NCBI GenBank assembly: GCA_046075445.1
Contig: JBJTQD010000859.1
Coordinates: 1 to 30,389, forward strand
Reading direction: 5' to 3'
Length of the DNA stretch: 30,389 nt
Origin: Planctomycetota bacterium
Lineage (GTDB): Bacteria > Planctomycetota > Planctomycetia > Pirellulales > Pirellulaceae
How positions within the stretch are numbered: position 1 is the first letter of the stretch; each line of letters opens with the position of its first letter. The position numbers were made by a program, and so were the translations under genes. Below the pieces are notes generated by a model. That model had not been told where the DNA came from and searched no databases. It saw only the letters and a program-made list of their open reading frames with translations. Below, one piece after another: positions 8,783-25,746 of the stretch.

Positions 8783-11617
8783 TTGGCAAGCGGAAACGTT
8801 TTTGACCCCACAAACCACACACTTCCTCGGGCCCTTCAGATGCTTGAATCATCGTGCCGGGAGATCCCTGACCGCGCGCAGGCCACTTTCGAGCGACTGC
8901 GCTGCGGTGCTTGGCTATTTCGTTTGCTGGTCTGGATGTTGATGTCCTCCCTCGCGACGTTGCTTTGTGCCCAAGATCGAGCGGTTAACAGCGAGACGAT
9001 CTGGAAACTCGGGCAGACGGATACTGGCTTGCAAGAGTCCGACTTGAAGCATCGCTGGTTGGCCGATGAAACGTTGACGGGCGAAGCCAAACCTGAGGAG
9101 TTTTCATTCCAAGTCGGACACGGGACGGAAATTCAACTGATTTACCCTCTTGAGCCGGCGCGAGTGATTTCCGAGTGGTCGGTCGGACTTCCCGTCAAAT
9201 CGAATTGGAAAGGAGTCCGTTTATTTATACGCGTTGTCTTCCCACATTCGTTTGACCCTTTGACCGGCAAACGGCTTACGGCACTACTTCCCGGTACTGC
9301 GACGACCACGGTGTCGGGTTGGGAAAACCTAGGGATTGGAGGTCAGTACAGTTCGCTTTCGAGTGAAATGCAGGAAGCAGTCTGGGTGTTGCGAAAAAAA
9401 TACGGTCCTGAGGTAAACGACCGCGATGCGTATATCGATCAGCTGATATTGAACATTTACGGTGGAGAGGGGCCGCACGTCATACAAGTCGGTTCTCCGC
9501 GCACCAGTGGCTCAGTTGGCTTAGACCCCAGCCAATCAAGCTTTCAGGACAGAATCGCTGCGAAACGCGACATGTCACTGCGGCAAGTGTCGTTTCAGGA
9601 AACAGATGAGCGACCATTAGCTCGCGTCAGACGTGATGGAACGGTACTCGAATTAAATGACCAACCCTTTGTGGCTCGGATCATTCAGCACAATGGCGAG
9701 AGCTTTGAATTCCTAAAGGGGCTCGGCTTCAACACGATCCAGTTGGCAACGACAGCTACTGATGTTCAGGTGTTGGAGGCCGAACAGTCGAATGTTTGGT
9801 TGGTCTCTCCTCCGCCACCTGACTGGCAGACACCGAGTTTGGCGGCGCGGTCAGACCGGGTGATTGCTTGGATGCTGGGCGATGGCTTGGGCGAGCAGGA
9901 ATCTCGAAACGTTGCCGAGCGAATCCGCGAAGTAAAGGCACAGGACCTCAGGTCGCAGCGGCCGGTAGCAACCGGAGCCGTTAATAACTGGAATGCTTTT
10001 GCTCAGACCAGCGACATTCTCGTCCTCGGCCAACTGACCGCCGGCGGAGGATTGCCGCTGAGTCGGTACAGCGATTGGCTTAGTGGGTGCCGCGAGGCGA
10101 CGGGCAATTCGCTGCCAATCTGGGCTGATTTGCATACCGAATTTCCTTCGGCTGCCGTTCGCCAAATGGGCAATTTCATCGGACAGCTCCCGCCACTGCC
10201 GCTGGAACCCCAGCAAATGCAGTTTGCCTTATTCGAAGCGCTCGCCGGGGGCGCTCGCGGGATTCGCTTTCTCTCTCGATCGCGGCTCGATGCCACAGAC
10301 CCCCAGTCGCGGCTGCGAACTCTGCAAGTTCAGTGGTTGAATCGGCAACTGGACTTGTTCGAGCCTTGGGCGGCCGCAGGGGTAGTCGCCGGGACGGTCG
10401 CCACCGGAAATGCCCAACTGGAAGTGACAGCTCTCAAGCAAAATCGGGGGACGCTGCTTTTCGTTCAGCAGACGACTGGCTGGGAACAGCTGGTTACCGG
10501 TGACGCGCCTTTGCAGACGGTTCGGTTTGCCGACAGTTACTCAGCAATCAGCGACCGGGCTTATCTTTTGGCTGATTACGGCTTGGTTCCCTTAGGGAGC
10601 GCACGAGGTCCAACCGGAACCGAACTGCAGATCGACCTTTGTCCGCAATTGGCGGCAATTGTGCTGACGCAAGATCCGCAAGTTGTGAATGCCCTAAGTG
10701 CCCAATACGATCGTCCCGGTGGCCCAACTTACGTCAATTTGCATGACCAACTCACTCATCAGTGGTTCACGATTACACAGTTAATCGAGGGCCAATGCAG
10801 TCGTTTGGGCGGAGGAAACGCGGCAGCGAGCAACGCGCTCAATGAATCGCTGCGACTGCTCAGACAAGCCGAAACACTACTGGCAGGTAGCAATCAACTG
10901 ACGGCGACGAATTATCTAGTGTCGGCTGACCAGCAGTTGGCTGTCGTCCGCAGGGAACTCGTCGCGCAGGCGCGGGGAGGATTCCGCAGTCAGGTATCGG
11001 CGCCGCTGCTAATGCATCCCAGCTTGCTGCCGCTGCATTGGCAATTCACTCAACAGGCATCGCGTATTGGTTGGGAAGCCAATGGGCTGGGCGCAGGAGA
11101 ATTTGAAAACCTGGAGCAGCTCCTAGCCAACGGCTGGGAAAACATTCGCGCGGATAACTCGGACATCGAAACTCTGGTGGAGCTTTCACCGCGGGCTGTG
11201 GTTTCGGGAAAAACGGGGCTTCGTTTGGCGGCCGATTCGAGCGCGACGACCAGTGGCAATCTTTCTCAACCACCGCTACGCATCCTTTCCGGCAGAGTGA
11301 ATGTTCCGGCCGGTAAGTTGATTCGGATTCATGGCTGGGTCAATCTGGCAAAACCATTGAGCGGAACGACTGAGGGGCTTTTGGTTTACGACTCGCTTGG
11401 GGGCAGAGATTTGGGATTGCGAGTTCGGCAGACGGAGGGCTGGCAGGAAGTGGTTCTTTACCGGGCAACTTCCGAACCGGCCGAACTGCGGCTGACCCTG
11501 CAACTTCAGGGTCTAGGCGAGGTGCTTCTGGACGAATTCACCGTCCAAACACTCGATTTGCCGGGGGTTAGCCCCCGAGCCGCTGAAAACAGAGCTTCAG
11601 GGTCGCCGCCGAGATAA
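8783..11617 (+). CDS. Large exported hypothetical protein, possible GH-like barrel plus beta-sandwich; start uncertain
   Basis: 944-aa ORF; hydrophobic signal-like stretch AWLFRLLVWMLMSSLATLLCA-QD; LKGLGFNTIQL resembles clan GH-A barrels; C-terminal segment rich in beta-strand and Trp residues. Confidence 0.8.
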   Translation: MASGNVFDPTNHTLPRALQMLESSCREIPDRAQATFERLRCGAWLFRLLVWMLMSSLATLLCAQDRAVNSETIWKLGQTDTGLQESDLKHRWLADETLTGEAKPEEFSFQVGHGTEIQLIYPLEPARVISEWSVGLPVKSNWKGVRLFIRVVFPHSFDPLTGKRLTALLPGTATTTVSGWENLGIGGQYSSLSSEMQEAVWVLRKKYGPEVNDRDAYIDQLILNIYGGEGPHVIQVGSPRTSGSVGLDPSQSSFQDRIAAKRDMSLRQVSFQETDERPLARVRRDGTVLELNDQPFVARIIQHNGESFEFLKGLGFNTIQLATTATDVQVLEAEQSNVWLVSPPPPDWQTPSLAARSDRVIAWMLGDGLGEQESRNVAERIREVKAQDLRSQRPVATGAVNNWNAFAQTSDILVLGQLTAGGGLPLSRYSDWLSGCREATGNSLPIWADLHTEFPSAAVRQMGNFIGQLPPLPLEPQQMQFALFEALAGGARGIRFLSRSRLDATDPQSRLRTLQVQWLNRQLDLFEPWAAAGVVAGTVATGNAQLEVTALKQNRGTLLFVQQTTGWEQLVTGDAPLQTVRFADSYSAISDRAYLLADYGLVPLGSARGPTGTELQIDLCPQLAAIVLTQDPQVVNALSAQYDRPGGPTYVNLHDQLTHQWFTITQLIEGQCSRLGGGNAAASNALNESLRLLRQAETLLAGSNQLTATNYLVSADQQLAVVRRELVAQARGGFRSQVSAPLLMHPSLLPLHWQFTQQASRIGWEANGLGAGEFENLEQLLANGWENIRADNSDIETLVELSPRAVVSGKTGLRLAADSSATTSGNLSQPPLRILSGRVNVPAGKLIRIHGWVNLAKPLSGTTEGLLVYDSLGGRDLGLRVRQTEGWQEVVLYRATSEPAELRLTLQLQGLGEVLLDEFTVQTLDLPGVSPRAAENRASGSPPR

Positions 11618-11701: not shown

Positions 11702-11781
11702 AAACAGACTTCCGCGGGCAGTACATTTGATGGGTTGCCTGTAATCTTATTCATTGCGTGATTTCTCTAGGAGTTGCACCT

Positions 11782-12345
11782 ATGACGACTGCCTCTATTT
11801 CTGGAAAGCAAGCTCTCGCTTACGCCGTAGCGGGGGCTGCTGCTTTGGGCACACCAGCGATTGCCCAAGCTGATTTCTCCGGTCCCTATGACCATGCGAA
11901 TTGGACTTTTACCCAAGGTGGCGACAGCTCGTTCACCGCTAACTTGACCACCCTGACACTGAGGGGCTCGAACAATGGCACAACGCTGAATGCGTTGACT
12001 GAGTACACGATCGCCGCCGATGCCAGCGGTACGGTCAGCTTTGACTGGAATTATTCGAGTGTCGACTCGTTGAACTGGGATTACGGTGGCTTTTCGGTCA
12101 ACGGCGTGTTCACGACTTTGGCCTTCAATTCGACCGCTGGCACAGGCAACTTCTCTACTGCGGTCAACGCAGGCGACGTCTTTGGGTTCTGGGTTTTCTC
12201 TCAAGACTCAACCTTCGGTGCCGGTATTCTGCAAATCACCAATTTCAGCGGTCCAGTAGCGGTACCCGAACCAGGTTCCTTGGGCTTGCTGGCCCTCGGT
12301 ACTGTCGGTGGAGTTCTCGGACTGCGTCGCCGACGACGAAGCTAG
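11782..12345 (+). CDS. PEP-CTERM protein-sorting-domain surface protein
   Basis: ATG at 11782 with AGGAG RBS; signal peptide ending AQA; Ser/Thr/Gly/Asn-rich mature domain; C-terminal VPEPGSLGLLALGTVGGVLGLRRRRRS. Confidence 0.93.
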   Translation: MTTASISGKQALAYAVAGAAALGTPAIAQADFSGPYDHANWTFTQGGDSSFTANLTTLTLRGSNNGTTLNALTEYTIAADASGTVSFDWNYSSVDSLNWDYGGFSVNGVFTTLAFNSTAGTGNFSTAVNAGDVFGFWVFSQDSTFGAGILQITNFSGPVAVPEPGSLGLLALGTVGGVLGLRRRRRS

Positions 12346-12421
12346 GCCATCTCGACCGCAATAAGTTTCCACCTGGCAAGTTCCAGCTGGAACGATTGCA
12401 GCGAAGAATTGTTCCAACAAG

Positions 12422-12451
12422 AAGAGCCCGGTCGCAAGATCGGGCTTTTTT
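12422..12451 (+). terminator. Rho-independent terminator after the PEP-CTERM gene
   Basis: agcccggtc-gcaa-gatcgggct followed by a T run. Confidence 0.85.
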
Positions 12452-12592
12452 CGTAGCCTCTCCGCCTTCGTGACTGGACGGCACAAAGCAGTTAGCTGAA
12501 ACTGAAAAGAGAAGCGCGAATCGAATCGAGATTAGGGGTTGGCACTTTCCATTGCCGCCACAGTCGCGCCGTCTCCTTTTACGAAGCTTTCG

Positions 12593-14560
12593 ATGTCCGG
12601 AAAACGCCTCGCCAAGAAACTGCTGCTCATCGGCTGGGATGGAGCTGACTGGCAGATCATCAAACCGCTGCTAGAGCGCGGTGAGATGCCGGCTTTGCAG
12701 AGCCTGATTGACCAAGGGGTGATGGGGAACTTGGCCAGCATGCGGCCGATGATTTCGCCTATGCTTTGGACGAGTATGGCAACGGGCAAATCCCCTGAGC
12801 ACCATGGAATCCACGGCTTCTCTGAGCCTGCACCACACTCCCAAAGCGGGGTTCGTCCGGTTAGCAGCACGAGCCGTAAATGCAAAGCATTCTGGAACAT
12901 TCTGACTCAGGCCGGAATCAAAAATCATGTGGTCAGCTGGTTCGCTGGCCATCCGGCCGAGCCGATCAACGGCGTCTGTATTTCTGAGTTGTTTTCTAAG
13001 CCGACGCAACCGCTGAGCGAGGGCTGGCCGGTCCCCATCGGGTCGGTGCATCCTGTCTCACTGGCAGAGCAACTGGCGGACTTGAGGGTTCATCCGAGTG
13101 ACTTCTCGCTGGATGACTTCAAACATTTCATCCCCACCATCCGAAATTACGATGCGGCCAACGATCGAAATGTACGATTGATGGCGATTCAGTTGGCCGA
13201 GTGTGCGACTAATCAGGCGATCACTACTTGGATTATGGAAACCCAGCCTTGGGAGATGGTTTCCGTTTACTTCAACACGATCGACCACCTCTCGCACGGT
13301 TTCATGTACTACCATCCGCCGCGGATGGCTCACATTCCGCCACCGCTGTTCGAGCGGTACAAGGCGTGCATCGATATGACCTATCGTTTGCACGACATGA
13401 TGCTCAGCCGTCTGCTCAAACTGGCGGGCGAGGACACGACCGTAATGCTGGTTTCGGATCATGGATACCAAACTGGCGATCGTCGACCAAAGTTGACGCC
13501 GCATGAACCGGCCGGGCCGGTGGTTTGGCACCGGCCATATGGCATCATCGTGATCAAAGGTCCCCAGACGCGTCGGGATGAACTGCTCTACGGAGCGAGA
13601 ATCCTAGACGTCACTCCAACCGTTCTTTCAATGTTCGGGCTACCGGTCGGTGCCGATATGCAAGGCAAACCTCTGGTTCAGGCCTTCGCCGAAACGGTTG
13701 CCGTGGAGACGATTCCGAGCTGGGACTCGGTAGAAGGCGATGCGGGGATGCACACTGGCGAGGTTCAGTCAGACCCTTTGGCGGAGCTCGCAGCCTTCAA
13801 TCAACTGGTTGAGCTTGGTTATGTCGAACCAGGGCTGGAAGACAAACAAGCGACCATGAAAAAGGTGGCCGAAGAATGCCAATACAACCTTGGCTGCTCG
13901 CTGATGGCAAACCAGAGCTACGAAAAGGCAATAGAACTTTTGGAGGGCGTGCACCAGAGTCAGCCCGCGCGGTTGAATGTGGCCTTTAACCTCGCCGAGT
14001 GTTATCAACTAGCTGGGCGGTTTGATGATTGTCGGCGGCTGATTGATTTCATCGCGGCGGGTAACTGCTCAGAGCCGGGGCTGGAGGACAAGCGATTGCG
14101 AGTCGTTCCGCAGACGGATCTGCTTCGCGGTGTGCTTGAACTCAACCAAGGAAATCACGAACTGGCTCTGGAGTATCTTCTAAAAGCCGAACAGGCTATG
14201 GGTCGACACCGCGGACTGAGCACGAGCATTGGAAAAGCGTATTTGGATTTAGAGCGCTATGAAGATGCGGGGCGGGCTTTTGAGCGAGCGATTGATGTCG
14301 ACTCTGATGACCCCGAGGCTCACCTTGGAATGGCGGTCGTCTTTCTCTGGATGAACCGAAATGAATTAGCCTTGGAAAACCTGTTGCGTTCCGTCGGGAT
14401 TATTTATCACCAGCCCAAAGCTCACTATTACCTCGGGCTTGCCTATGCTCGGCTGGGCCGTCCCGACGCGGCCAAGAGCGCTTTGGAAGTTTCAATTCAC
14501 ATGCGACCGGGGAATCCGGAAGCCGAGCGATTGCTCTCTGCACTTTCCCAGGCAACCTGA
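12593..14560 (+). CDS. Alkaline-phosphatase-superfamily (nucleotide pyrophosphatase/phosphodiesterase-like) protein with C-terminal TPR repeats
   Basis: LIGWDGADW (metal Asp), ISPMLWTSMATG (Ser nucleophile position), DHLSH, SDHG; TPR-like helices from ~13870 to the end. ATG at 12593 preferred; no signal peptide. Confidence 0.88.
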   Translation: MSGKRLAKKLLLIGWDGADWQIIKPLLERGEMPALQSLIDQGVMGNLASMRPMISPMLWTSMATGKSPEHHGIHGFSEPAPHSQSGVRPVSSTSRKCKAFWNILTQAGIKNHVVSWFAGHPAEPINGVCISELFSKPTQPLSEGWPVPIGSVHPVSLAEQLADLRVHPSDFSLDDFKHFIPTIRNYDAANDRNVRLMAIQLAECATNQAITTWIMETQPWEMVSVYFNTIDHLSHGFMYYHPPRMAHIPPPLFERYKACIDMTYRLHDMMLSRLLKLAGEDTTVMLVSDHGYQTGDRRPKLTPHEPAGPVVWHRPYGIIVIKGPQTRRDELLYGARILDVTPTVLSMFGLPVGADMQGKPLVQAFAETVAVETIPSWDSVEGDAGMHTGEVQSDPLAELAAFNQLVELGYVEPGLEDKQATMKKVAEECQYNLGCSLMANQSYEKAIELLEGVHQSQPARLNVAFNLAECYQLAGRFDDCRRLIDFIAAGNCSEPGLEDKRLRVVPQTDLLRGVLELNQGNHELALEYLLKAEQAMGRHRGLSTSIGKAYLDLERYEDAGRAFERAIDVDSDDPEAHLGMAVVFLWMNRNELALENLLRSVGIIYHQPKAHYYLGLAYARLGRPDAAKSALEVSIHMRPGNPEAERLLSALSQAT

Positions 14561-15150
14561 TGTCTCCTGCCCCGTCAGACCGAGTCACGATTGTTTCGGG
14601 GCTGCCCCGATCGGGCACCTCAATGATGATGCAACTCCTTACGGCTGGTGGTCTGGAGCCACTGACTGATCAAATCAGAACGCCTGACGGCTCCAATCCA
14701 AAGGGCTACTTCGAATATGAGCTAGTTAAGAGTTTGGCTCAAGACCAGAGTTGGCTCCCTTTAGCACGCGGTAAAGTGGTCAAGGTTATCGTCCAATTAC
14801 TACAGTTCCTCCCGACAGGACTCCCGTGTCAGGTCGTCTTGATGCAGCGCGACATTGATGAAGTACTGGAATCACAAGCAACCATGCTGGGCAAACAGTT
14901 GCCGGCCTCTCAAGCTCAAACCCTGAAAGCCACATTCCAGCGTCACTGGGAACAATCGCGCAGCCGCCTGGAATCTTCCCCTGAATGCAGCTTGCTGGTC
15001 GTAGAGCATCGCAATCTCATGACTCGGACGGAAACTGAAATCACTCGGCTGATCGAGTTCTTTACGCCCCAGCAGTTAAAGAGAGAGGAAATGCGAAGAG
15101 TTGTTGACCCGACGCTTTACCGGTCGCGGACCAGTGGAGAGTTGCCGTAA
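14560..15150 (+). CDS. PAPS-dependent sulfotransferase family protein
   Basis: 5'-PSB loop SGLPRSGTSMMM and 3'-PB-like MQRDIDEVLES; TGATG stop/start overlap with the AlkP-TPR gene. Confidence 0.88.
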   Translation: MSPAPSDRVTIVSGLPRSGTSMMMQLLTAGGLEPLTDQIRTPDGSNPKGYFEYELVKSLAQDQSWLPLARGKVVKVIVQLLQFLPTGLPCQVVLMQRDIDEVLESQATMLGKQLPASQAQTLKATFQRHWEQSRSRLESSPECSLLVVEHRNLMTRTETEITRLIEFFTPQQLKREEMRRVVDPTLYRSRTSGELP

Positions 15151-15378: not shown

Positions 15379-15729
15379 CTAGGCCTTCTTGGCGTAGGTC
15401 GCCTTGGCTGGGGCAACAATTCCCATCGATGCACCCGACTTGCGAGCAAATCGCTCTTTGCGTCCGTCTTCGAGGTAACGGTAGCCGATGCGAGTTGGCT
15501 GACCGGTCTTCGGGCAGAGCACCATCAGTTTGGAAACATCGATTGGCAACTCTTTGTTCAATCGGCCGCCTTGAGGGTTTCTCTGGCTTGGTTTGACGTG
15601 CTTTTGAACCTTGTTGATGCCTTCGACGACAGCCTTGTTATTGGCGTGATCGACCGAGATGACTTTGCCGGTCTGTCCGGCGTCTTTTCCGCGCAGAACT
15701 TTGACGGAATCGCCAACGTGAATCTTCAT
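15379..15729 (-). CDS. rplX: 50S ribosomal protein L24 (uL24), stand-alone
   Basis: MKIHVGDSVKVLRGKDAGQTGKV (KOW motif)...VVEGINKVQKHVKP...GG...ELPIDVSKLM; GGAG RBS; 116 aa. Confidence 0.96.
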   Translation of the reverse strand: MKIHVGDSVKVLRGKDAGQTGKVISVDHANNKAVVEGINKVQKHVKPSQRNPQGGRLNKELPIDVSKLMVLCPKTGQPTRIGYRYLEDGRKERFARKSGASMGIVAPAKATYAKKA

Positions 15730-15757
15730 CTTTTTCTCTCCGAATTTCGAATTCACG

Positions 15758-15786
15758 ATAATGCGGGAAGACGTGACTTTTGTCAA
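15758..15786 (-). promoter_or_regulatory. Sigma70 promoter of rplX
   Basis: Minus strand TTGACA (15786-15781)-N17-CATTAT (15763-15758); perfect -35 and optimal spacing. Confidence 0.75.
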
Positions 15787-15917
15787 GGGAATCGGAAAAA
15801 ACCCTTGTTTTTTCACGATCTTTATTCACCCCCGGCATGGAGATAGGCCGCTTCCAACCTCATTCAGGGCAAAGCGGGCAGAAGCGGGAGGGCCGGCCGG
15901 CGCTGGGGCGGTTGTCC

Positions 15918-18443: not shown

Positions 18444-20144
18444 ATGCTCACACCACGCAGTCACACCGGCCGAATAAGCAACGCAATTGACCTGAACGAG
18501 TGCTATTTGGTGCTTGAAACCAGGCAATTGCTCGCGGTCACGGTTGCCTATGACTCTTCAACCAACATCCTGACGATCACTGGCGACAGTTCGGCTGATT
18601 CAGCCTACGTCATCAACGCCGCGGGTGGGCAGGTTGAAGTCACAGGGACGGGGATCGACGCTCAGTATTTCAGCGCTGCAAGTATCAGCCGAATCGACTT
18701 CCTCGGCTACGGCGGTAATGACCATTTCGAAAATCAAACTTCGATCGCAAACCGAGCCTTCGGTCATGCAGGAGACGATTTTCTCTCGGGTGGCAGCGGG
18801 GCGGACTGGTTCAGCGGAGGCCCTGGAAGCGACGAGATTCGCGGGAATCAGGGAAATGATACGCTGATGGGCAGTGAGCAAAACGACTTGCTCTACGGCG
18901 GCGAAGGCAATGATACGCTGACAGGATTCACCGGAGACGACACGCTTTACGGTGGCTCAGGAGACGATTTCCTTTACGGACAAGCAGGAAATGATTTCGT
19001 TGACGGCGAGGCGGGCAACGATCGAGTTCGGGGCAATGCCGGCGCGGACACGCTCTACGGTGGAGCCGATAATGACTACATGATGGGCGACACCGAGAAT
19101 GATCAGATGTACGGCGGAACCGGAGCGGACGAGCTCTACGCTTGGTGGGGCGATGATTTGCTCGATGGTGGTGACGGAGATGACAATCTTTATGCTCACG
19201 ACGGCAACGACGTTTGCCGAGGCGGCCTTGGGGCTGACTTGATTCGAGGGGGCAATGGAAATGACTCAATCTACGGTGAAGCAGACGACGATCGGCTCTA
19301 CGGGGAGAACGGAAATGACTTAATCCGCGGCGGCAGTGGTGTCGACTTGCTTAGAGGTGGAAATGACAATGACTCGCTGCATGGCGGCGACTCCGGTACC
19401 AGCGATACGCTCTACGGCGATGCGGGTTACGATCGATTCTTGCGACAAGGCAGCGACACGGTCGTCGACAAAGCAGCCGAAGACGCGATTATTCGCTTTG
19501 AAAATGCCACCGGCACTTGGACTGACCGCGAAATCGAGGTGATTGATGAAGGTTTGGCAATGCTCGTGGCTGAAACTGCGAACAACGCCCTGCTTCTCGA
19601 TTCACTTGACCCGCAGGATCTCGGATTCTTCAAGTATGCAGAACTCGACGGGGCTGCCGCCTGGAATCAGCTTGCAATCTATGAGCAACAGCAATGGAAT
19701 TACATCACCGGGCAATGGGAAACAACCGGCTACACCTACGAGCGCGAGATCCATTTCGCAGACTGGGATGAATCGTCTGCTTGGTACAACTCGCAGTACT
19801 CGCTGGTTGCGGTCCACGAGTTAGGTCACAACTGGGATAGCGAGGAAGAATTGGCGACCATTTCGGCAAATGCCAGCCAGCTCTGGGTTGACTTCCTTGC
19901 GATCAGCGATTGGCGGGATGTGAATCCTAATTCTCCCGGCAGTTTTACCCAGTCGCTCGACGGCAATCATTGGTTTGCCAGTTCCGCGAGTTTTGCCGAG
20001 AACTACGGCCAAACCAACCCGCGTGAAGATTTCGCGACGATTTGGGAATACTTCTTTAACCCGGACGCTGACCCAGCGCTGGCCACTGCCCTACAGCCAA
20101 AACTGAGCCTACTGAATAACCTCTTCGCTCTAGCTCAAGGTTAG
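18444..20144 (+). CDS. Secreted RTX/hemolysin-type Ca-binding repeat protein with C-terminal HExxH zinc-peptidase domain
   Basis: N-terminal LETRQLLA planctomycete export motif; about 25 GGxGxDx(L/F/I) nonapeptides (~18705-19440); HELGH at 19815-19829 and downstream YGQTNPREDFA. Confidence 0.88.
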   Translation: MLTPRSHTGRISNAIDLNECYLVLETRQLLAVTVAYDSSTNILTITGDSSADSAYVINAAGGQVEVTGTGIDAQYFSAASISRIDFLGYGGNDHFENQTSIANRAFGHAGDDFLSGGSGADWFSGGPGSDEIRGNQGNDTLMGSEQNDLLYGGEGNDTLTGFTGDDTLYGGSGDDFLYGQAGNDFVDGEAGNDRVRGNAGADTLYGGADNDYMMGDTENDQMYGGTGADELYAWWGDDLLDGGDGDDNLYAHDGNDVCRGGLGADLIRGGNGNDSIYGEADDDRLYGENGNDLIRGGSGVDLLRGGNDNDSLHGGDSGTSDTLYGDAGYDRFLRQGSDTVVDKAAEDAIIRFENATGTWTDREIEVIDEGLAMLVAETANNALLLDSLDPQDLGFFKYAELDGAAAWNQLAIYEQQQWNYITGQWETTGYTYEREIHFADWDESSAWYNSQYSLVAVHELGHNWDSEEELATISANASQLWVDFLAISDWRDVNPNSPGSFTQSLDGNHWFASSASFAENYGQTNPREDFATIWEYFFNPDADPALATALQPKLSLLNNLFALAQG

Positions 20145-20221: not shown

Positions 20222-21343
20222 TCAACTTTGCTGCCGTGTCGCGGCCGATTCAGCTTCTTCAATTTTCGCAATTGGGACCTTGGTAAAGAGGTAGTGGGCG
20301 ACGAACCACTCGCTGCCATTGCGGTAGCCAAAGAGTTCGGCGCAGGCGAGGAAGAACATACGCCAGCGATGAAACCAGCGGCTTCCCTCGCCTCGCCCGT
20401 AGGTTTCATCAAACAGCTCAATGATCTCTCTGCGATGGGAGTACATGTTGGCGAGCCAGAGATTGCTGGTCCGCTCGTAGTGCCGTCCGTCCCAGCGCCA
20501 TTGGCGGCGCACGGCCAAATACTGGTCGTAGCGTGAAAAAAGCTGCTCGTTGGGCATCATGCCGCCAGAAAAGAAATAGCGGCCCATCCAATTGGCGGCA
20601 CCGTCTGTTTCAAAGGGATAGGCAAATTCCTTGTGGCAGAAAATGTGAACAAACATTTTGGCCTCAGCACGCATCCAGGTCGAAATCCGCTGGAGCAATT
20701 CGCGGTGGTTCCGCATGTGCTCGAACATTTCCACTGAGACCACGCGGTCGAATTTCCGATCGAGTTCCAGTCGATTCATGTCGCAAGTGATCACGTCGAG
20801 ATTGCCATCGACGCCTCGCCGTAAAGCCTGCTGCAAGATGTACTCTCGCTGGGTGCGCGAATTAGAGACGGCCGTAATGCGACTATTCGGATAACGTTCG
20901 GCCATCCAGAGGGTCAGCGAACCCCAGCCGCACCCCAGTTCGAGCACATCTTGCCCGTCCCGCAGTTCGGCGCGTTGGCAGGTGACTTCCAAAGCGGCTC
21001 GCTCTCCGCTCGCAAGGTCACCGCGAAAATCTTCAAAATAACAACTGCTGTACTTTTTATGCGGGCCTAGGACGAGGTCATAAAAACGAGTCGGAACTTC
21101 GTAGTGCTGTTCGTTCGCCTTTTCCGACAGCGGAGCCAACTGCGAGGTTTCAGACTGTACCAGAAAGTCGACGGTCCGCTGTTGCCGCTCATCGAGTGTG
21201 CCTTCGTTGAGTGTCGCCAACCGTTGCCGCAGCAGCGCCCGGATCCCAGCTCGCTCGAGGCGTTCCGGAATCCAACCGCGTTCAATTGCCTCGATAGCTA
21301 CTTTGGTGAGTTGTTCTTTAATCATTTGTCTTGCCGACACCAT
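20222..21343 (-). CDS. Class I SAM-dependent methyltransferase (Cfa-related / coclaurine N-methyltransferase-like)
   Basis: ANEQHYEVP, KYSSCYF, VLELGCGWGSL, VSVEMFEHMRN, FFSGGMMP. Confidence 0.9.
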   Translation of the reverse strand: MVSARQMIKEQLTKVAIEAIERGWIPERLERAGIRALLRQRLATLNEGTLDERQQRTVDFLVQSETSQLAPLSEKANEQHYEVPTRFYDLVLGPHKKYSSCYFEDFRGDLASGERAALEVTCQRAELRDGQDVLELGCGWGSLTLWMAERYPNSRITAVSNSRTQREYILQQALRRGVDGNLDVITCDMNRLELDRKFDRVVSVEMFEHMRNHRELLQRISTWMRAEAKMFVHIFCHKEFAYPFETDGAANWMGRYFFSGGMMPNEQLFSRYDQYLAVRRQWRWDGRHYERTSNLWLANMYSHRREIIELFDETYGRGEGSRWFHRWRMFFLACAELFGYRNGSEWFVAHYLFTKVPIAKIEEAESAATRQQS

Positions 21344-21402
21344 GGTCGGAGTTCAGCGGTCAACGATTTTATTTCAGTGATTTGCGTTCAAGCCAATCCG
21401 AT

Positions 21403-22200
21403 TCAATTTGCTTTGGGCTGAGTCCGAGGAAACCATGGAAAAAAGGGACTCGTGGTTTGCTGGTAGCGGCGATAGGCTTCGCCCCGACTCTTTAGTGACT
21501 GGGCTTCGGTTGGCGGAATCCCGGTGACCCGGGTGATCAGGTACCACATCGTCAGCGGGCCGAGCAGGGTCAAGCAGCCCCAGGGCCAGTTGCTGATGGC
21601 AAAGCAGACGTAAGCCCACCAGTGCAGCCACTCGAAGAAATAGTTTGGGTGTCGCGAGTACCGCCACAGCCCGAGATTGCAAACTTGCCCTCGATTGGCC
21701 GCCTGACTGCGGAATCGGGAGAGTTGCCAATCAGCCAAACTCTCTCCGGCGATGCTCAACACGCCAATGGCCAAACCAAACCAGTCGAGCCAGATCAGCG
21801 GCTGAGGGTTTTGCAACGCAATCAGGATTGGCAGGGCAAAAAGCACCACACCGACAGCCTGCAACTGGTAAAAGCGAAACATTCTCCAAGCAGCTTGGGG
21901 CCCCCACTGCTCTTTGAGCGCCGTGTAGCGACCATCCTCCGGCATGGTCAACACGCGCATCAGCACATAGCCTGCCAAACGAATCGCCCACACGAGAACG
22001 ACAGCGAGGACCAGCCACTTGCGTTCAGCCAATCCTGCTGGGCTGAGCCAAGCGAAGGCGGCGGAGAGCAGTCCAACACCGGCTGCCCAGGCGACGTCAA
22101 CAATCCCTGCGTCGCCAGTCCAGAGCTGAACCAGCCAAAGCAGCCCCATCAAACAGGCTGCGGCCAACCATCCAAGCAGAATCAGGGTGAGCATGCTCAT
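21403..22200 (-). CDS. DUF1295 (steroid 5-alpha-reductase-like) membrane protein
   Basis: DAGIVDVAWA, EDGRY, GESLADWQL, GLWRYSRHPNYFFEW, TGIPPTE; several TM segments; ATGA overlap with cfa. Confidence 0.9.
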   Translation of the reverse strand: MSMLTLILLGWLAAACLMGLLWLVQLWTGDAGIVDVAWAAGVGLLSAAFAWLSPAGLAERKWLVLAVVLVWAIRLAGYVLMRVLTMPEDGRYTALKEQWGPQAAWRMFRFYQLQAVGVVLFALPILIALQNPQPLIWLDWFGLAIGVLSIAGESLADWQLSRFRSQAANRGQVCNLGLWRYSRHPNYFFEWLHWWAYVCFAISNWPWGCLTLLGPLTMWYLITRVTGIPPTEAQSLKSRGEAYRRYQQTTSPFFPWFPRTQPKAN

Positions 22201-23558
22201 GAGTTGATCGCCGCGTCTGATGAGCCACTTTCTGCAGCACGGTCGGCATGGGAATGGCGCTGCGACAAATGCCCAGCTATTTTTACGCCGTGGTCAAGCC
22301 GGCACTGGCGATGAGCCCAGAGCATATGCACGAGGTTGATTTGTCGCTCGTCAAAGCCAGCTTCGCAGTAAGCGAGGTAGTAATCCCACATCCGGATGAA
22401 ACGCTCGTCGTATCCCAGCGCCCGCACCTCTTCAATTTGCTGATGAAAACGTTGCCTCCAGCGGCGGAGGGTCTCGGCATAGTGGGGCGCATAATCGTTG
22501 AGCTCTACCAGTCGCATGCTGGCTGAGTCAGCAGCGCACTGGACCAAGCGGGAAATGCTCGGGAGACTCCCTCCGGGGAAAATGTACTTGCAGATAAAGT
22601 CCACACTGCTGAGATGTTGACGATAACGCTGGTCAACAATCGTGATCGCTTGCAGCAGAAGCAAGCCGTCGGGCTTGAGCAAGGAGTTACACTTTTCGAA
22701 GAAGGTTTCGTAATAGTGGTCGCCCACTGCCTCGATCATCTCGACGGAAATAATTTTGTCGTATTTCCCTTCCAGCAAGCGATAATCGCGATCGAGCACG
22801 TTGACGCGATCTTTCAGGCCTTCCATCTCCACGCGGCGACAAGCCCAATTGAATTGCTCTTTTGAAATTGTTGTAGTCGTCACGCGACAGCCAAAGTGTT
22901 TGGCTGCGTAACAGGCGAGCGAACCCCAGCCAGTCCCGATTTCGAGCAGATGGTCGCCGGGTCGCAAGTCGAGCATCCGACAGAGCCGGTCCATCTTGTT
23001 GAGCTGGCCGCGATGCAGGCTCTCTCCATGACCGCCTCCTCCCAGTTCGCTAAAGACGGCGCTTGAATAATTCATTGTTGGGTCAAGGAACAGTTCAAAG
23101 AACTCGTTGCCCAGGTCATAGTGCTCGCGAATGTTCTTGCGAGCTTGGCGGGTGCTATTGCGACGCAGCCAGTGTCCCAGCCGCTCCCAAGATTTTCGCC
23201 AGCGTCCAAAGCCGCGATCGAAATCATCCGCCAGGTCCAGATTGCGGGTCATCAACCGCACCAGCCCCGTGAGGTCGCTGCAACTCCAATCACCATCCAT
23301 CAGACTTTCGGCAGCCCCCAAGCCACCTCCCCAGAGCACGCGGCTGTAGAACACCGGCCGATGAACTTGAATCTCAATGGGTGAAGCCAAAGTCCCGTCG
23401 GCCGACTTCTCAGGAACACCAAACAGGTATCTTCCAGTCGAGTCTTGAATAGCCAATTGGCCGTGACGTAGCCGGCGGACGATTCCAAAGACGAATTGGC
23501 GTTGAATCCGGCTGCGCAGCTTAAGCTGTTCTGGAGCTTTAATCGGAGTAGGAATCAT
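22197..23558 (-). CDS. cfa: Cyclopropane-fatty-acyl-phospholipid synthase family methyltransferase
   Basis: NIREHYDLGNEFFELFLDPTMNYSSA, LLEIGTGWG, SVEMIEAVG, YIFPGGSLP, WDYYLAYCEAGF. Confidence 0.92.
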   Translation of the reverse strand: MIPTPIKAPEQLKLRSRIQRQFVFGIVRRLRHGQLAIQDSTGRYLFGVPEKSADGTLASPIEIQVHRPVFYSRVLWGGGLGAAESLMDGDWSCSDLTGLVRLMTRNLDLADDFDRGFGRWRKSWERLGHWLRRNSTRQARKNIREHYDLGNEFFELFLDPTMNYSSAVFSELGGGGHGESLHRGQLNKMDRLCRMLDLRPGDHLLEIGTGWGSLACYAAKHFGCRVTTTTISKEQFNWACRRVEMEGLKDRVNVLDRDYRLLEGKYDKIISVEMIEAVGDHYYETFFEKCNSLLKPDGLLLLQAITIVDQRYRQHLSSVDFICKYIFPGGSLPSISRLVQCAADSASMRLVELNDYAPHYAETLRRWRQRFHQQIEEVRALGYDERFIRMWDYYLAYCEAGFDERQINLVHMLWAHRQCRLDHGVKIAGHLSQRHSHADRAAESGSSDAAINS

Positions 23559-24487
23559 GGGACCTCTACGGTGGAAGTGGATTCCGAACGAGTTGATAAC
23601 GTTGACGTTGGGGCACTTTCGCGCGACTTGGCCGAGGCACTTAGTTCCCGCATCGCGTCTGCAGCAGATAACTCATGATGGTGAATGTTACTGCGCTGAA
23701 GCGAGCCTTTTCCAATGCCCTGATTACCATGTGGCCGGCCTTTGGCTGGATGCGGGACAAACGGCACCCGTTTCCACCAAAGCCGAAGGGCTTGCCAATA
23801 GATTTGGATGAAGATTCGAAACGTGCTGAAGGGGAAAGTGAACATCAATCGGGTGAGATTGGCTGTGGAGATTTCTCTCTGCTCTAACTGCATCGTGACA
23901 TCAAACAGGGGGCGATTGTCGCGACGATTGACAACGTCTACGGAAAGTCGCTCCGCGGGGGGCGGCAGGTGCCAAGCATATTCCATGTCGAGATTCATGA
24001 AGGGGCTGACGTGGAACACTTTTTCGACGGGCTTGGCAGCCGCAAGCTTGTAAGCGAAATGCTCCGGTTTGAGAACGTAACAGTGGCGCTGTCCCCAAGG
24101 CGTGTTGTTGACCTCGGCGACAATAAAGTCGGGCTGCGGTGAGTCAGGCTGCCGAAAGCAGTAGTAGAAGGAAACCGGGTTGAACACAAAGCCGAAGTGT
24201 CGAAGTTGCGTCAGCAACCTGATCGTTCCAGAAAAGGACTCACCGGTCTGGCTCTGAATTTCTCGCTGAACGCTCTGAGCAAGCGGTTCTGCGGGATTGC
24301 CAAAATGGTCTCGGCGATGGAAACGAAAAGGAGCGGGACGACGCACTGACCATAGCCAGCGTCCTGCGAAGACTTCGTCCAACTCGGATAGGTCGAGATA
24401 GATCAGGTAGATTCGATTGCGAAATGCGTGGCCTGGTTCTTCCAGTCGGCGGTGTCGGACCCAGCCTGCGTAGATGCAACTGAACAT
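23555..24487 (-). CDS. DUF1365 family protein
   Basis: MFSCIYAGWVRHRR, FGFVFNPVSFYYC, AEVNNTPWGQRHCY, KVFHVSPFM, IYWQALRLWWKRVPF; ATG at 24487. Confidence 0.9.
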   Translation of the reverse strand: MFSCIYAGWVRHRRLEEPGHAFRNRIYLIYLDLSELDEVFAGRWLWSVRRPAPFRFHRRDHFGNPAEPLAQSVQREIQSQTGESFSGTIRLLTQLRHFGFVFNPVSFYYCFRQPDSPQPDFIVAEVNNTPWGQRHCYVLKPEHFAYKLAAAKPVEKVFHVSPFMNLDMEYAWHLPPPAERLSVDVVNRRDNRPLFDVTMQLEQREISTANLTRLMFTFPFSTFRIFIQIYWQALRLWWKRVPFVPHPAKGRPHGNQGIGKGSLQRSNIHHHELSAADAMRELSASAKSRESAPTSTLSTRSESTSTVEVP

Positions 24488-25746
24488 GATTTTCGATCCA
24501 GATAACGACAAACTGCCAGAGCGCTGTTAACGCCATCCTCGTGAAAACCATTGCCCCAGTAGGCGCCGCAGAAGGAGGTGCGATTGGGACCGATCAGCTC
24601 GCCATGTCGACGCTGGTTCTCACGGCGGTCCGCGGTAAAGACAGGGTGATGGTAAACGATGCTGCGAATGACTCGGCGGGGGTCAATTCGGTCGCCGCAG
24701 TTCAGACTCACACAGAAGGTCTGCGGGCTGACTACCCCCTGCAGTAAATTCATGTTGTAAGTGACGGTCGCCTTGGCAGTTGCCTCCGGAGCCTCGCTGG
24801 CTGGAATGTGATAATTCCAGCAGGCCCAAGCTCGACGGTTGCGGGGCAGCAATTTTGTATCGGTGTGCAGCACAGCGAGATTTTTCTCATAGGGGAAACC
24901 GCTGAGCACCTCTCGTTCAACGGGAGTCGCAGAGCCATTCAGAATCAACAAAGCTTGGTCGCTGTGGCAAGCAAAGATGACATGGTCAAAAATTTCCGGA
25001 GCGCCTCCCCGATGGGTCCGAATTTTGACGTGCTCTGCCGTTCGTTCGACGGAAACAACGGGTGAGTTTAAGCGAATCGAGTCAGCCAGCGGGCGAGCTA
25101 GTACCTCGACGTATCGCTGAGAGCCTCCGTTGATAACTCGCCACTGCGGACGATTGCGAGTGCTAAGCAATCCGTGATTGCGATAGAAATCGGCGATGAA
25201 ACGAATCGGAAAACCTTCAACTGCCGAGTGCGGACAACTCCAGATGGCCGAAGCCATCGGAAGAAAATACTTGTCGATAAACTGCCTGCCAAATCGGTGC
25301 TGGCTGAAGAACTCTCCCACTGTCTGATTTTCGGGAGCAGCGGCAAGCAACTGCTCGGCTTGGCGATTAAAGCGAAGCAGTTCCGAGAGAAGCCCAAGGA
25401 ATCGGGGGCTGAACAGGTTTCTGCGCTGAGCAAACAAGCCATTTAAATCAGCGCCGCGGTACTCCAGCCCGCTTTGCTCACAGCTAACGGAAAAGGTCAT
25501 CGAGGTCGGCTTGGAGGAAACCCCTAATTCGTCCAGCAAGCCACAGAAATTGGGATAGGTCCGGTCGTTGAAGACAATGAACCCCGTGTCAATCGCATAC
25601 TCGCGACCTTCGAGTTCAAATTCGACCGTATTGGTGTGTCCGCCGATGTAGTCGTTCGCTTCGAACAACGTCACATCGTGCTGCTGACGCAGATTGTGGG
25701 CTGCGGTCAGCCCAGAAATTCCCGACCCGATAATGGCAATTTTCAT
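24403..25746 (-). CDS. FAD-dependent oxidoreductase (amine-oxidase / UfaD-like desaturase family)
   Basis: KIAIIGSGISGL Rossmann motif, FEANDYIGGHTNT, DTGFIVFNDRTYPNF, GAYWGNGFHEDG. Confidence 0.92.
   Translation of the reverse strand: MKIAIIGSGISGLTAAHNLRQQHDVTLFEANDYIGGHTNTVEFELEGREYAIDTGFIVFNDRTYPNFCGLLDELGVSSKPTSMTFSVSCEQSGLEYRGADLNGLFAQRRNLFSPRFLGLLSELLRFNRQAEQLLAAAPENQTVGEFFSQHRFGRQFIDKYFLPMASAIWSCPHSAVEGFPIRFIADFYRNHGLLSTRNRPQWRVINGGSQRYVEVLARPLADSIRLNSPVVSVERTAEHVKIRTHRGGAPEIFDHVIFACHSDQALLILNGSATPVEREVLSGFPYEKNLAVLHTDTKLLPRNRRAWACWNYHIPASEAPEATAKATVTYNMNLLQGVVSPQTFCVSLNCGDRIDPRRVIRSIVYHHPVFTADRRENQRRHGELIGPNRTSFCGAYWGNGFHEDGVNSALAVCRYLDRKSCSVASTQAGSDTADWKNQATHFAIEST

Follow-up and report, generated by a model that had tools for sequence, protein, structure and literature searches.

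Does the gene for a small exported protein in a genome of Planctomycetota belong functionally to the two enzyme genes that follow it, and what would the enzymes do to its product? The window analyzed here, a stretch of 30,389 nt, carries on its + strand a gene for a PEP-CTERM protein (11782-12345; termed the cargo below), a gene joining an alkaline-phosphatase-superfamily (AlkP) domain to a TPR superhelix (AlkP-TPR; 12593-14560) and a gene for a minimal PAPS-type sulfotransferase (14560-15150). The initial annotation regarded the three as a candidate cassette, in which a dedicated cytoplasmic enzyme pair would modify the cargo prior to export.

The cargo gene encodes a 187-aa protein that is predicted to be exported, with a CBM-like beta-sandwich as its putative mature part. 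It was annotated as a small exosortase-targeted protein, and the PEP-CTERM models bear this out: PF07589 matched residues 160-184 in the Pfam scan with 25.8 bits (cut-off 20.7) and TIGR02595 scored 28.2 bits (cut-off 16), the matches to the two models spanning residues 160-186. The tail reads V-P-E-P-G-S-L-G-L-L-A-L-G-T-V-G-G-V-L-G-L-R-R-R-R-R-S (12259-12342). The same genome encodes an exosortase of the EpsH family (PF09721, 103.7 bits; contig C490) and an APS kinase, and contains only 11 PEP-CTERM matches in 4.26 Mb. At the N-terminus, which was inspected by eye only, Lys9 precedes an Ala-rich core and A-Q-A stands ahead of D31; the segment A-L-A-Y-A-V-A-G-A-A-A occupies residues 11-21 (11812-11844) within this putative Ala-rich signal peptide. 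As annotated, the mature part is rich in Ser and Thr (25% together) and its Tyr residues lie in GPY, EYT, NYS and DYG. Conservation among the mature Tyr residues is confined to Y36, Y75 and Y91, with Y75 alone being invariant across eight orthologues. Searching the atlas for look-alikes of the cargo yielded PEP-CTERM proteins of small size, of which some contain CBM_4_9 or DUF642. An alternative GTG start of this open reading frame is found at 11758.

For AlkP-TPR, we regard the ATG at 12593 as the likely start rather than the TTG at 12539, because the 655-aa homologues cover the query over 100% of its length from that Met. PF01663 was detected with an E-value of 6.4e-27 and 95.5 bits (cut-off 23; residues 28-315 of the frame starting at TTG), together with many TPR families. 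The predicted structure (pLDDT 93.5) consists of an NPP-like AlkP domain (approximately residues 1-390) followed by a TPR superhelix (approximately residues 395-655). In Foldseek searches, the former retrieved the Xac NPP structures (7n1s, 2gsn and 7mw8; E-value of around 1e-9, TM-score by target of 0.51-0.55) and then ENPP4/5/6, while the latter retrieved the TPRs of OGT, SPY and APC. D16, S55, D231, H235, D289, H290 and H313 are invariant among 66 aligned sequences, and we take these residues, by analogy with NPP, to be the metal ligands and the nucleophile. Judged by this analogy, the domain possesses a complete bimetal site with Ser (S55) as the nucleophile. The protein was also considered as PrsT (TIGR02917) and rejected, since the score of 51.5 bits (cut-off 312.2) stems from generic TPR repeats only and no signal peptide is present.

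The sulfotransferase comprises 196 aa and its start overlaps the stop of AlkP-TPR, the annotated TGATG being located at 14558-14562. PF13469 covers only residues 91-168 (1.4e-9, 39 bits; cut-off 27) and no match to NCBIfam was found. Both the 5'-phosphosulfate loop (G-L-P-R-S-G-T-S) and the 3'-phosphate motif (R97-x7-S105) are intact; the PAPS loop V12-S13-G14-L15-P16-R17-S18-G19-T20-S21 as well as R97 and S105 vary little or not at all among 37 sequences. The predicted structure (pLDDT 91.3) retrieved Teg12, TPST2, StaL and Stf1 in Foldseek, and VIA-align placed TPST1 (Z of 13.5) and TPST2 (Z of 12.7) at the top, with 166-171 residues aligned at 18-19% identity. Judged from the modeled structure, the protein is thus closest to tyrosylprotein sulfotransferases by a small margin, as their lead over other, non-protein sulfotransferases amounts to about 1-2 Z units. 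Neither enzyme was annotated with a signal peptide, and indeed there is no room for one: the metal-ligand strand G-W-D of the AlkP domain sits at residues 14-16 in 66 out of 66 aligned sequences, and the P-loop of the sulfotransferase begins at residue 13.

The two enzyme genes represent a single three-domain enzyme in split form. Among 80 related loci, AlkP-TPR and the sulfotransferase were fused in 40, split into overlapping or adjacent genes in 15 and located nearby in four; P0081 exemplifies the natural fusion. The sulfotransferase was present in 14 of the 15 relatives possessing AlkP-TPR, and all of the five acidobacteria lacking an adjacent sulfotransferase gene hold exactly one copy elsewhere. 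With over 4900 homologues of AlkP-TPR, the NPP-TPR-sulfotransferase enzyme is very widespread in bacteria and unstudied; a literature search found no paper on the enzyme/client system.

The arrangement within the window permits a trivial interpretation, namely that an ordinary PEP-CTERM gene with a terminator of its own happens to lie beside an unrelated two-gene enzyme operon. The cargo and AlkP-TPR genes are not tightly packed but are separated by 247 nt, and the spacer contains a GC-rich, terminator-like hairpin followed by a U-run (12421-12452; + strand). The fold of the 71-nt stretch at 12400-12470 has a dG of -28.2 kcal/mol (z of -4.7), which none of 200 shuffled sequences equaled, and the loci L001, L007 and L048 bear hairpins of different sequences at the same place. 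PEP-CTERM genes are, in addition, dispersed through the genome. The same-strand order of cargo, AlkP-TPR and sulfotransferase in the annotated cassette stands, but the word cassette should not be read as one tight operon. Nevertheless, the neighborhood survey contradicts a fortuitous adjacency, which we deem extremely improbable. Order and strand recur in all five genomes with a cargo of the window type as well as across phyla. Of 41 relatives, five possess this type, and in all five its gene immediately precedes that of the enzyme (the orthologues in four relatives being located precisely so); it was never found without the enzyme in the genomes searched (none in 26 enzyme-negative relatives). 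Both the small number of PEP-CTERM matches in this genome and the recurrence in other phyla place the neighborhood of the two genes far beyond what chance would give.

The survey that the initial annotation had called for, of fused or split AlkP-TPR and sulfotransferase genes beside secreted cargo sharing the leader, came out in favor of the linkage. Same-strand genes bearing the leader L-x-x-Y-A-x-x-A-G-A and/or the tail [ST]LG.LA.G..G...W-R were detected in 65 of the 84 loci, the remaining 19 having no client within the flanks, and the linkage recurs in Planctomycetota, Acidobacteriota, Bacteroidota, Verrucomicrobiota and Nitrospirota. The strict tail motif lies on the same strand within 600 nt upstream in 39 of the 80 loci, against an expectation of 0.0033 per slot. 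The leader-bearing cargo family was found in 52 of the 82 loci, with 85 of its 88 open reading frames on the strand of the enzyme. All-against-all clustering of the neighborhoods yielded only three recurrent families: the enzyme, the cargo family and a micro-protein. In a class sample of 80 genomes, the main cargo family occurred solely in two enzyme-positive genomes, adjoining the enzyme; it was found in none of the 73 enzyme-negative genomes and was missing at E 1e-20 from five of the seven enzyme-positive ones. The enzyme-positive acidobacteria without adjacent cargo possess 3-22 dispersed cargo genes per single enzyme gene. Note that the genomes in these counts are related and so are not independent samples.

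Two signatures characterize the clients. The leader signature L-x-x-Y-[AS]-x-x-A-[AG]-A was detected in 87 enzyme-linked cargo open reading frames from several phyla, approximately 90% of which retain the Tyr. This residue is kept in seven of the eight orthologues of the window type and is the one hydroxyl residue common to the window-type and main-type clients. The other PEP-CTERM proteins of the genome have ordinary Leu-rich signal peptides, the signature being absent from the four with readable N-termini. The window tail belongs to a fixed-length family, [ST]LG.LA.G..G...W/L-R, a member of which precedes the enzyme in 48 loci. The core of this tail is 15 residues long without exception and, in no fewer than 33 of the 59 tails, includes charged residues, which rules out a membrane anchor in many lineages. 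Of the 59 tails, 52 (but not all) begin with Ser or Thr, and many micro-proteins have Phe at the aromatic position that precedes the tail. What all lineages share is the C-terminal tail and not the leader. In Planctomycetota and Acidobacteriota, the tail resides on full-size exported proteins, and one enzyme gene is often accompanied by several such paralogues in tandem. In Bacteroidota, the tail constitutes a free micro-protein of 60-90 aa devoid of both leader and signal peptide, and the leader is carried by T9SS proteins. The micro-protein genes often overlap the start of the enzyme by 4 nt, and no exosortase match was found in three of the five Bacteroidota genomes carrying the module.

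Given that, in many phyla, the enzyme neighbors exported proteins that share a particular signal peptide and tail, we consider it a probable sign of a route, not described so far, by which surface proteins are modified ahead of export. For the window, we favor the reading, on which we are evenly divided between acceptance and doubt, that a split, cytoplasmic NPP-TPR-sulfotransferase is dedicated to a family of exported clients, with the upstream PEP-CTERM protein as the client of this genome. The clients would be marked by the Ala-rich signal peptide with L-x-x-Y-A..A-G-A and, in exosortase-bearing lineages, also by the PEP-CTERM-type tail. The TPR arm may bind the fresh pre-protein in the cytoplasm as OGT binds its substrates, with the tail and/or the leader as the docking element. 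The sulfotransferase domain, given its fold and motifs, would move sulfate from PAPS onto a hydroxyl group, and Tyr is favored as the acceptor because the fold is TPST-like. The NPP-like domain might, more speculatively, handle the nucleotide side (PAP, PAPS or APS) or a second ester step, and the modified client would then undergo Sec export and exosortase sorting. No universally conserved hydroxyl residue, Tyr included, was found in the clients, which counts against this reading. The annotated writer pair is therefore retained in part: the enzymes are often one polypeptide, have no signal peptides, are linked to cargo across phyla and include a TPST-like sulfotransferase with intact PAPS motifs. 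The modification itself, sulfate as the group and Tyr as its site, binding of the leader by the TPR domain and a relay role of the AlkP Ser are kept here as predictions.

The peculiarities of the tail invite a different assignment of roles, in which the tail or, in Bacteroidota, the tail-only micro-protein would partner the enzyme, either as a subunit that activates or regulates it or as a tether close to the membrane. The true substrates would then be the leader-bearing proteins or something else, and the window tail would double as a docking helix. Because the micro-proteins of Bacteroidota carry the tail yet have no signal peptide, the tail might act as a subunit or an adaptor instead of tagging substrates. 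The fixed, often charged core, the 4-nt gene overlaps resembling those of subunits of one complex and the Bacteroidota genomes with no exosortase match all agree with this assignment. In Planctomycetota and Acidobacteriota, however, the stoichiometry of several tandem tail-bearing paralogues per enzyme gene fits substrates better than subunits, and the window tail is a canonical PEP-CTERM signal in a genome with an exosortase; we regard it as unlikely that the tail is such a partner instead of a substrate tag. Another possibility is that the enzyme pair sulfates or de-esterifies a non-protein substrate such as a small molecule, a lipid or an exopolysaccharide, and that the exported proteins are only co-regulated binders or users of the product at the cell surface. 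Among bacterial PF13469 sulfotransferases, many have a glycan, a lipid or a metabolite as their substrate; Stf9, Stf1, Stf0, StaL and an olefin-synthase sulfotransferase domain gave Z values near those of the TPSTs; and the cargo resembles a carbohydrate-binding beta-sandwich. Clusters for sulfated exopolysaccharides are known in bacteria (PMC8205485), which also favors a non-protein substrate. On the other hand, neither the neighborhood clustering (as a recurrent family) nor the flanks of the cassette in the window revealed glycosyltransferase, polysaccharide-export or lipid-synthesis genes, and the TPR arm and the short peptide signatures kept on unrelated client domains point to protein recognition, so that we consider a non-protein substrate quite unlikely.

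The TPR protein could also serve mainly as a cytoplasmic holding or targeting chaperone for weakly hydrophobic, Ala-rich pre-proteins, with the catalytic domains in a regulatory role, such as a reversible marking of the leader Tyr that gates export, instead of producing a stable modification of surface proteins. Signal peptides of this kind suit post-translational export. The retention of the leader Tyr and the weak matches of the TPR part to secretion-chaperone models are consistent with such a role; these matches are, however, generic to TPRs and fall far below the cut-offs, the micro-proteins have no leader, and we know of no precedent for the sulfation of a signal peptide. We therefore find a chaperone role improbable.

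Returning to the modification of exported clients, a broader version can be advanced only tentatively, and we judge it somewhat more likely to fail than to hold: an undescribed pathway spanning phyla, in which the tail and the Tyr-bearing Ala-rich signal peptide are tags for the NPP-TPR-sulfotransferase, the tag is a free micro-protein subunit in Bacteroidota with T9SS proteins as the clients, and the NPP-like domain adds new chemistry. If true, this chemistry would be new to protein sulfation, e.g., the use or recycling of adenosine phosphosulfate as a donor or a phosphodiester step, and the PEP-CTERM-type tail and the leader would be more than sorting signals.

Among known systems, RaxST-RaxX of Xanthomonas oryzae (PMC4646787) likewise places the gene for a PAPS sulfotransferase, of the same TPST-like class as that in the window, beside the gene for its secreted substrate, which is modified in the cytoplasm before export; the corresponding substrate link in our case, and the sulfation itself, are predicted. 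RaxST differs in having neither an AlkP/NPP domain nor a TPR arm. A small peptide with a leader, RaxX leaves the cell through an ABC transporter that contains a peptidase (RaxB/RaxA type), while the clients here are multigene families with Sec-type signal peptides and PEP-CTERM-like tails or T9SS domains; no Pfam match to an ABC transporter or peptidase was found in 16 open reading frames scanned from the window, and none was recurrent in the neighborhood clustering. TPST1 and TPST2 (5wri and 3ap3), the best structural matches, share the PAPS loop G-x-P-R-S-G-T-[TS] and R-x7-S with the window sulfotransferase. Those enzymes are membrane-anchored in the Golgi lumen and approximately 370 aa long with a larger acceptor-binding region, in contrast to the minimal cytoplasmic core found here, which relies on AlkP-TPR, whether fused to it or encoded separately. 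The nucleotide pyrophosphatase/phosphodiesterases (NPPs; Xanthomonas NPP, 2gsn; ENPP4, ENPP5 and ENPP6), the best fold matches of the N-terminal domain, share PF01663 and the bimetal site, but those known are either secreted or ecto-enzymes and use Thr as the nucleophile, whereas the window protein is cytoplasmic, has the invariant S55 and is joined to the TPR arm and the sulfotransferase.

OGT and SPINDLY resemble the enzyme in design, with a long substrate-holding TPR superhelix, matched by the modeled TPR, next to a domain modifying hydroxyl groups; the analogy is of design only, as their GT41 glycosyltransferase domain is unrelated to the NPP-like and sulfotransferase domains. The cargo fits PEP-CTERM/exosortase sorting (XrtA/EpsH with the TPR lipoprotein PrsT), given the exosortase in the genome and an accompanying TPR protein, which is however predicted to be cytoplasmic and enzymatic. 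Unlike in that system, the tail is of fixed length, often too little hydrophobic for a membrane anchor, and in some genomes with no detectable exosortase is encoded as a free micro-protein. In RiPP and lantibiotic operons, the precursor gene is followed by a leaky terminator and then by the modifying enzymes. The loci studied here likewise have a short conserved recognition peptide on variable substrates, the substrate gene first and a hairpin before the enzymes, but here folded proteins of 180-290 aa, predicted to be exported by Sec, take the place of the precursor, and recognition would rely on a C-terminal tail and a signature within the signal peptide instead of a cleaved RiPP leader.

The three plus-strand ORFs reported in the initial annotation were recovered at their positions by simple stop-to-stop rules, motifs being located by regular expressions. 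The first (11782-12345) encodes a protein of 187 aa, the cargo, which was assigned to PEP-CTERM by both PF07589 (25.8 bits vs. a cut-off of 20.7) and TIGR02595 (28.2 vs. a cut-off of 16). Its N-terminus is an Ala-rich leader containing A-L-A-Y-A-V-A-G-A-A-A, and its mature part, a CBM-like beta-sandwich with 25% Ser and Thr, contains all four of the tyrosine contexts that had been named. The second ORF encodes an alkaline phosphatase-superfamily domain (PF01663, 6.4e-27) followed by matches to many TPR families (AlkP-TPR). Its start is likelier to be the ATG at 12593 than the alternative TTG at 12539, because the homologues of 655 aa align from the former. The third (14560-15150) encodes a sulfotransferase of 196 aa (PF13469, 1.4e-9), the ATG of which overlaps the stop codon TGA of the AlkP-TPR gene in a TGATG, as had been described. 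The proposed run of cargo and enzymes along one strand held for order and strand but not for tight packing, as 247 nt separate the cargo from the AlkP-TPR gene. This spacer carries a GC-rich hairpin with a U-run at 12421-12452 (dG -28.2 kcal/mol, z -4.7, a stability not reached by any of 200 shuffles), and thus the cargo probably has a transcript of its own or an attenuated one. In three related loci (L001, L007, and L048), hairpins with other sequences are found at the equivalent position. A promoter scan found sites no more numerous than in shuffles. The sequencing runs listed were of freshwater metagenome DNA, with none of RNA among them.

The AlkP-TPR and the sulfotransferase constitute one cytoplasmic enzyme, which is in two pieces in the window. 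More than 4900 AlkP-TPR homologues of about 45% identity are spread over phyla, and relatives occur in no fewer than 591 species-level genomes belonging to six or more phyla. One homologue of 953 aa (P0081) bears the sulfotransferase as its C-terminal domain. We analyzed the best 80 loci of these genomes, namely those most similar to the window enzyme. The sulfotransferase was found in frame with AlkP-TPR, with no intervening stop, in 40 of the 80 loci, separate but overlapping or adjacent as in the window in 15, and within a few kb in four. All five acidobacterial genomes with no adjacent sulfotransferase hold exactly one copy elsewhere (E 1e-74 or better). Among 41 relatives of the window genome, 15 possess the enzyme, and the sulfotransferase was detected in 14 of these. 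Six relatives appeared to be sulfotransferase-positive and enzyme-negative; in the five that were checked, a divergent AlkP gene directly adjoins the sulfotransferase gene in two and lies within a few kb in one. Such pairs with a much more divergent AlkP-family gene in some Planctomycetota relatives (G044:C31 12731-13798, G026:C19 545-1663, and G045:C1 2423102-2430585) are arranged with the sulfotransferase first and the AlkP second, suggesting another and older association between these types of enzyme. A search of 1.84 billion representatives with a sulfotransferase profile returned 1737 clusters at 50% identity (E 1e-30 or better), whose members are either stand-alone proteins of about 190 aa or the C-terminal part of proteins of 840-950 aa.

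Judged from conserved residues, the motifs for PAPS use and AlkP-type catalysis are intact. The invariant residues of the AlkP domain (D16, S55, D231, H235, D289, H290, and H313) fit a full bimetallic site whose nucleophile is Ser, the roles being assigned by analogy. The invariant G-W-D strand of this domain occupies residues 14-16 in each of the 66 sequences aligned and the P-loop of the sulfotransferase begins at residue 13, leaving no room for a signal peptide in either protein, in agreement with the initial annotation. The sulfotransferase family retains the loop G-L-P-R-S-G-T-S and R97-x7-S105, as well as D37, R40, D43, N46, G49, Y50, E52, and K75. The predicted structure of the sulfotransferase (pLDDT 91.3) adopts a sulfotransferase fold, with Teg12, TPST2, StaL, and Stf1 as the first Foldseek matches. 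In a fold search independent of Foldseek, TPST1 (Z 13.5, rmsd 3.1, 166 aligned residues), TPST2 (Z 12.7), and a tick TPST (Z 12.3) were at or near the top, closely followed by the sulfotransferase domain of an olefin synthase (Z 12.5) and by Stf9 and StaL (Z of about 11.3). The preference of the model for the TPST fold is suggestive, not decisive. The AlkP-TPR model (pLDDT 93.5) matched Xanthomonas NPP and ENPP4/5/6, with sulfatases next, and its TPR part matched the superhelices of OGT, SPINDLY, and APC/C. Sequence searches of the PDB gave no match for the sulfotransferase and generic TPRs only for AlkP-TPR, and NCBIfam contains no model for the sulfotransferase, the main cargo family, or the micro-proteins (free ORFs consisting of the tail, see below).

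The enzyme shows a tight and ancient linkage to exported proteins, which are defined by a leader and a C-terminal tail and not by folded domains. In most loci, a same-strand gene immediately 5' of the enzyme encodes a protein that ends in a near copy of the tail of the window cargo. A strict tail pattern was found within 600 nt upstream in 39 of the 80 loci, vs. a background of 0.0033 per equivalent flank slot, and most of the background matches were themselves further tandem cargo genes upstream. With a looser pattern, tails were recovered in 48 loci. All-against-all clustering of the neighbourhood ORFs yielded only three recurrent real families, namely the enzyme, the cargo family, and the micro-protein. 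Of 82 loci, 52 contain the main cargo family (about 280 aa), and 85 of its 88 ORFs share the strand of the enzyme. Altogether, 65 of 84 loci possess a tail and/or a cargo-family gene; the recurrence of adjacent exported cargo, which the initial annotation had proposed to survey, is thus borne out.

Members of the main cargo family share a leader of the form [KR]-L-x-x-Y-[SA]-x-x-A-G-A, whose Tyr is retained by about 90% of the 87 sequences, a mature N-terminus of (E/Q)-(I/V)-V-Y-T, and the motifs L-D-L-N-x-D-G-x-x-D-F, H-Y-G-W, and G-Y-A-Y-E. In Acidobacteriota, Planctomycetota, Verrucomicrobiota, and Nitrospirota, as many as six tandem cargo genes, whose products end in the tail, precede the enzyme gene. 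The order is different in Bacteroidota, where the fused enzyme is followed by one to four cargo genes whose products terminate with a T9SS sorting domain. Here, the tail persists as a free ORF of 60-90 aa that has no signal peptide and immediately precedes the enzyme gene, often overlapping its start by 4 nt. Three loci (L056 8416-9594, L061 1439-2677, and L079 7247-9666) have a leader-bearing T9SS cargo upstream of a Tyr- and acid-rich micro-protein with the motif S-Y-E-[ED]-F-Y-x-x-I-P-x-E-G-S-L-G; as one of them is labelled Lentisphaeria, the T9SS-type arrangement is not confined to Bacteroidota. The tail core, [ST]-L-G-x-L-A-x-G-x-x-G-x-x-x-W, has a constant length of 15 residues, and the next residue is Arg or Lys. 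Charged residues occur within this core in at least 33 of 59 tails, and therefore the tail cannot be a membrane anchor in many lineages. The window cargo is a divergent member that shares the leader and whose tail is of the canonical PEP-CTERM kind; the main family was not found in the window genome, which is 87.6% complete. This genome has one exosortase match, two APS-kinase loci, and 11 PEP-CTERM matches. All nine of the other PEP-CTERM tails differ in detail, and the four readable N-termini of these proteins are ordinary Leu-rich signal peptides with no Tyr-bearing Ala-rich leader. We reject the idea that the tail merely reflects the generic PEP-CTERM consensus, given the fixed core, the frequent internal charges, the terminal Trp-Arg, the free micro-proteins, and the differing tails in the window genome.

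Cargo of the window type occurs in five of the 41 relatives, one per genome and always directly upstream of a split enzyme, and in none of the 26 enzyme-negative genomes among the relatives. The genome of locus L012 (G051, Acidobacteriota) carries 21-22 leader-bearing cargo genes with H-Y-G-W/G-Y-A-Y-E on many contigs and one enzyme gene. Five enzyme-positive Acidobacteria with no adjacent cargo have 3-22 dispersed cargo genes each, so that one enzyme would serve many clients. Of 80 genomes evenly drawn from that class, seven possess the enzyme; the main cargo family was found in two, both enzyme-positive with the cargo adjacent to the enzyme, and in none of the 73 enzyme-negative genomes. The numbers are small and the kin genomes are not independent, but the trend is consistent, as no searched genome yielded clients in the absence of the enzyme.

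We propose that the TPR arm docks the pre-protein via the tail and/or the leader, and that the sulfotransferase would then place sulfate on a hydroxyl group, probably of Tyr. The client would be exported by Sec and, in the window genome, sorted by the exosortase. A signal peptide that is rich in Ala and only weakly hydrophobic would be well suited to export after translation, leaving time for modification. More speculatively, the NPP-like domain may remove or process a nucleotide (PAP, PAPS, or APS), or may perform a second ester step. We regard the chances as even that a client-specific, protein-modifying enzyme acts on the adjacent cargo, and hold the specific chemistry with less confidence than this reading as a whole.

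Other explanations need to be weighed against the same observations. The tail or the micro-protein may be a subunit or adaptor of the enzyme and not a substrate tag. The free tails of Bacteroidota would suit such a role; on the other side stand the tails borne by exported proteins themselves, and we consider this reading unlikely. No universally conserved acceptor residue was found in the tails, micro-proteins, or cargo. The substrate may instead be a non-protein molecule, in keeping with Stf9, StaL, and the olefin-synthase domain among the structural matches. No glycan or lipid gene was recurrent in the neighbourhood clustering, and a non-protein substrate appears slightly less likely still to us. 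That the enzyme acts as a chaperone, or gates export by way of the leader Tyr, which most clients share, is improbable. Chance adjacency of cargo and enzyme is very improbable in the light of its recurrence across phyla.

The fate of PEP-CTERM proteins before or during sorting by exosortases is a long-standing question. To our knowledge, essentially one system of bacterial protein sulfation is known, RaxST/RaxX. In that system (PMC4646787), the gene of the secreted substrate lies next to that of the sulfotransferase dedicated to it, making RaxST/RaxX the closest in working to the present case, in which a sulfotransferase gene lies beside the gene of an exported protein. The enzyme described here is not a member of that system, as it comes with no peptidase-ABC exporter, has another substrate class, and carries two extra domains. 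OGT and SPINDLY are alike in design, combining a TPR arm with catalytic domains, but this is an analogy only. The contact with the PEP-CTERM/exosortase system is through the cargo. The TPR protein here is not PrsT; membership in the PrsT, MamA, or SycD-type TPR families was rejected with scores far below the cut-offs. The tail family reaches beyond exosortase-bearing genomes: three of five module-bearing Bacteroidota genomes, which may be incomplete, gave no match to PF09721 or TIGR04128. Our literature searches found no paper on an NPP-TPR-sulfotransferase architecture. A large enzyme family is tied to exported proteins with a peculiar signal peptide and tail. If the enzyme modifies its clients, bacteria of soil and freshwater would have a further, widespread level of cell-surface biochemistry that is new, and PEP-CTERM-like tails would gain a second, cytoplasmic reader.

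Several other ORFs deserve mention. In three loci of Verrucomicrobiota (L054, L066, and L074), a PEP-CTERM-like cargo is separated from the enzyme gene by a conserved ORF of about 290 aa, which starts with M-I-A-x-x-F-x-I-R-x-A-E and lies some 880 nt ahead of the enzyme. In the window, the cargo is immediately preceded on its strand by an ORF of 944 aa (8783-11617, plus strand) that has an N-terminal hydrophobic segment and gave no match in Pfam or NCBIfam. An isolated minus-strand ORF (15379-15816), convergent with the sulfotransferase gene, contains M-K-I-H-V-G-D-S-V-K-V-L-R-G-K-D-A-G, which by eye resembles ribosomal protein L24 (KOW motif). Further downstream, a protein of 566 aa (18444-20144, plus strand) has seven stretches of RTX calcium-binding repeats (PF00353, 1.3e-51) and, in its C-terminal part, H-E-L-G-H, resembling a zinc-protease site. 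Finally, a five-gene run on the minus strand (20222-25746) resembles a cluster for lipid modification, with genes for two cyclopropane-fatty-acid-synthase-like methyltransferases (PF02353), DUF1295, DUF1365, and a flavin amine oxidase.
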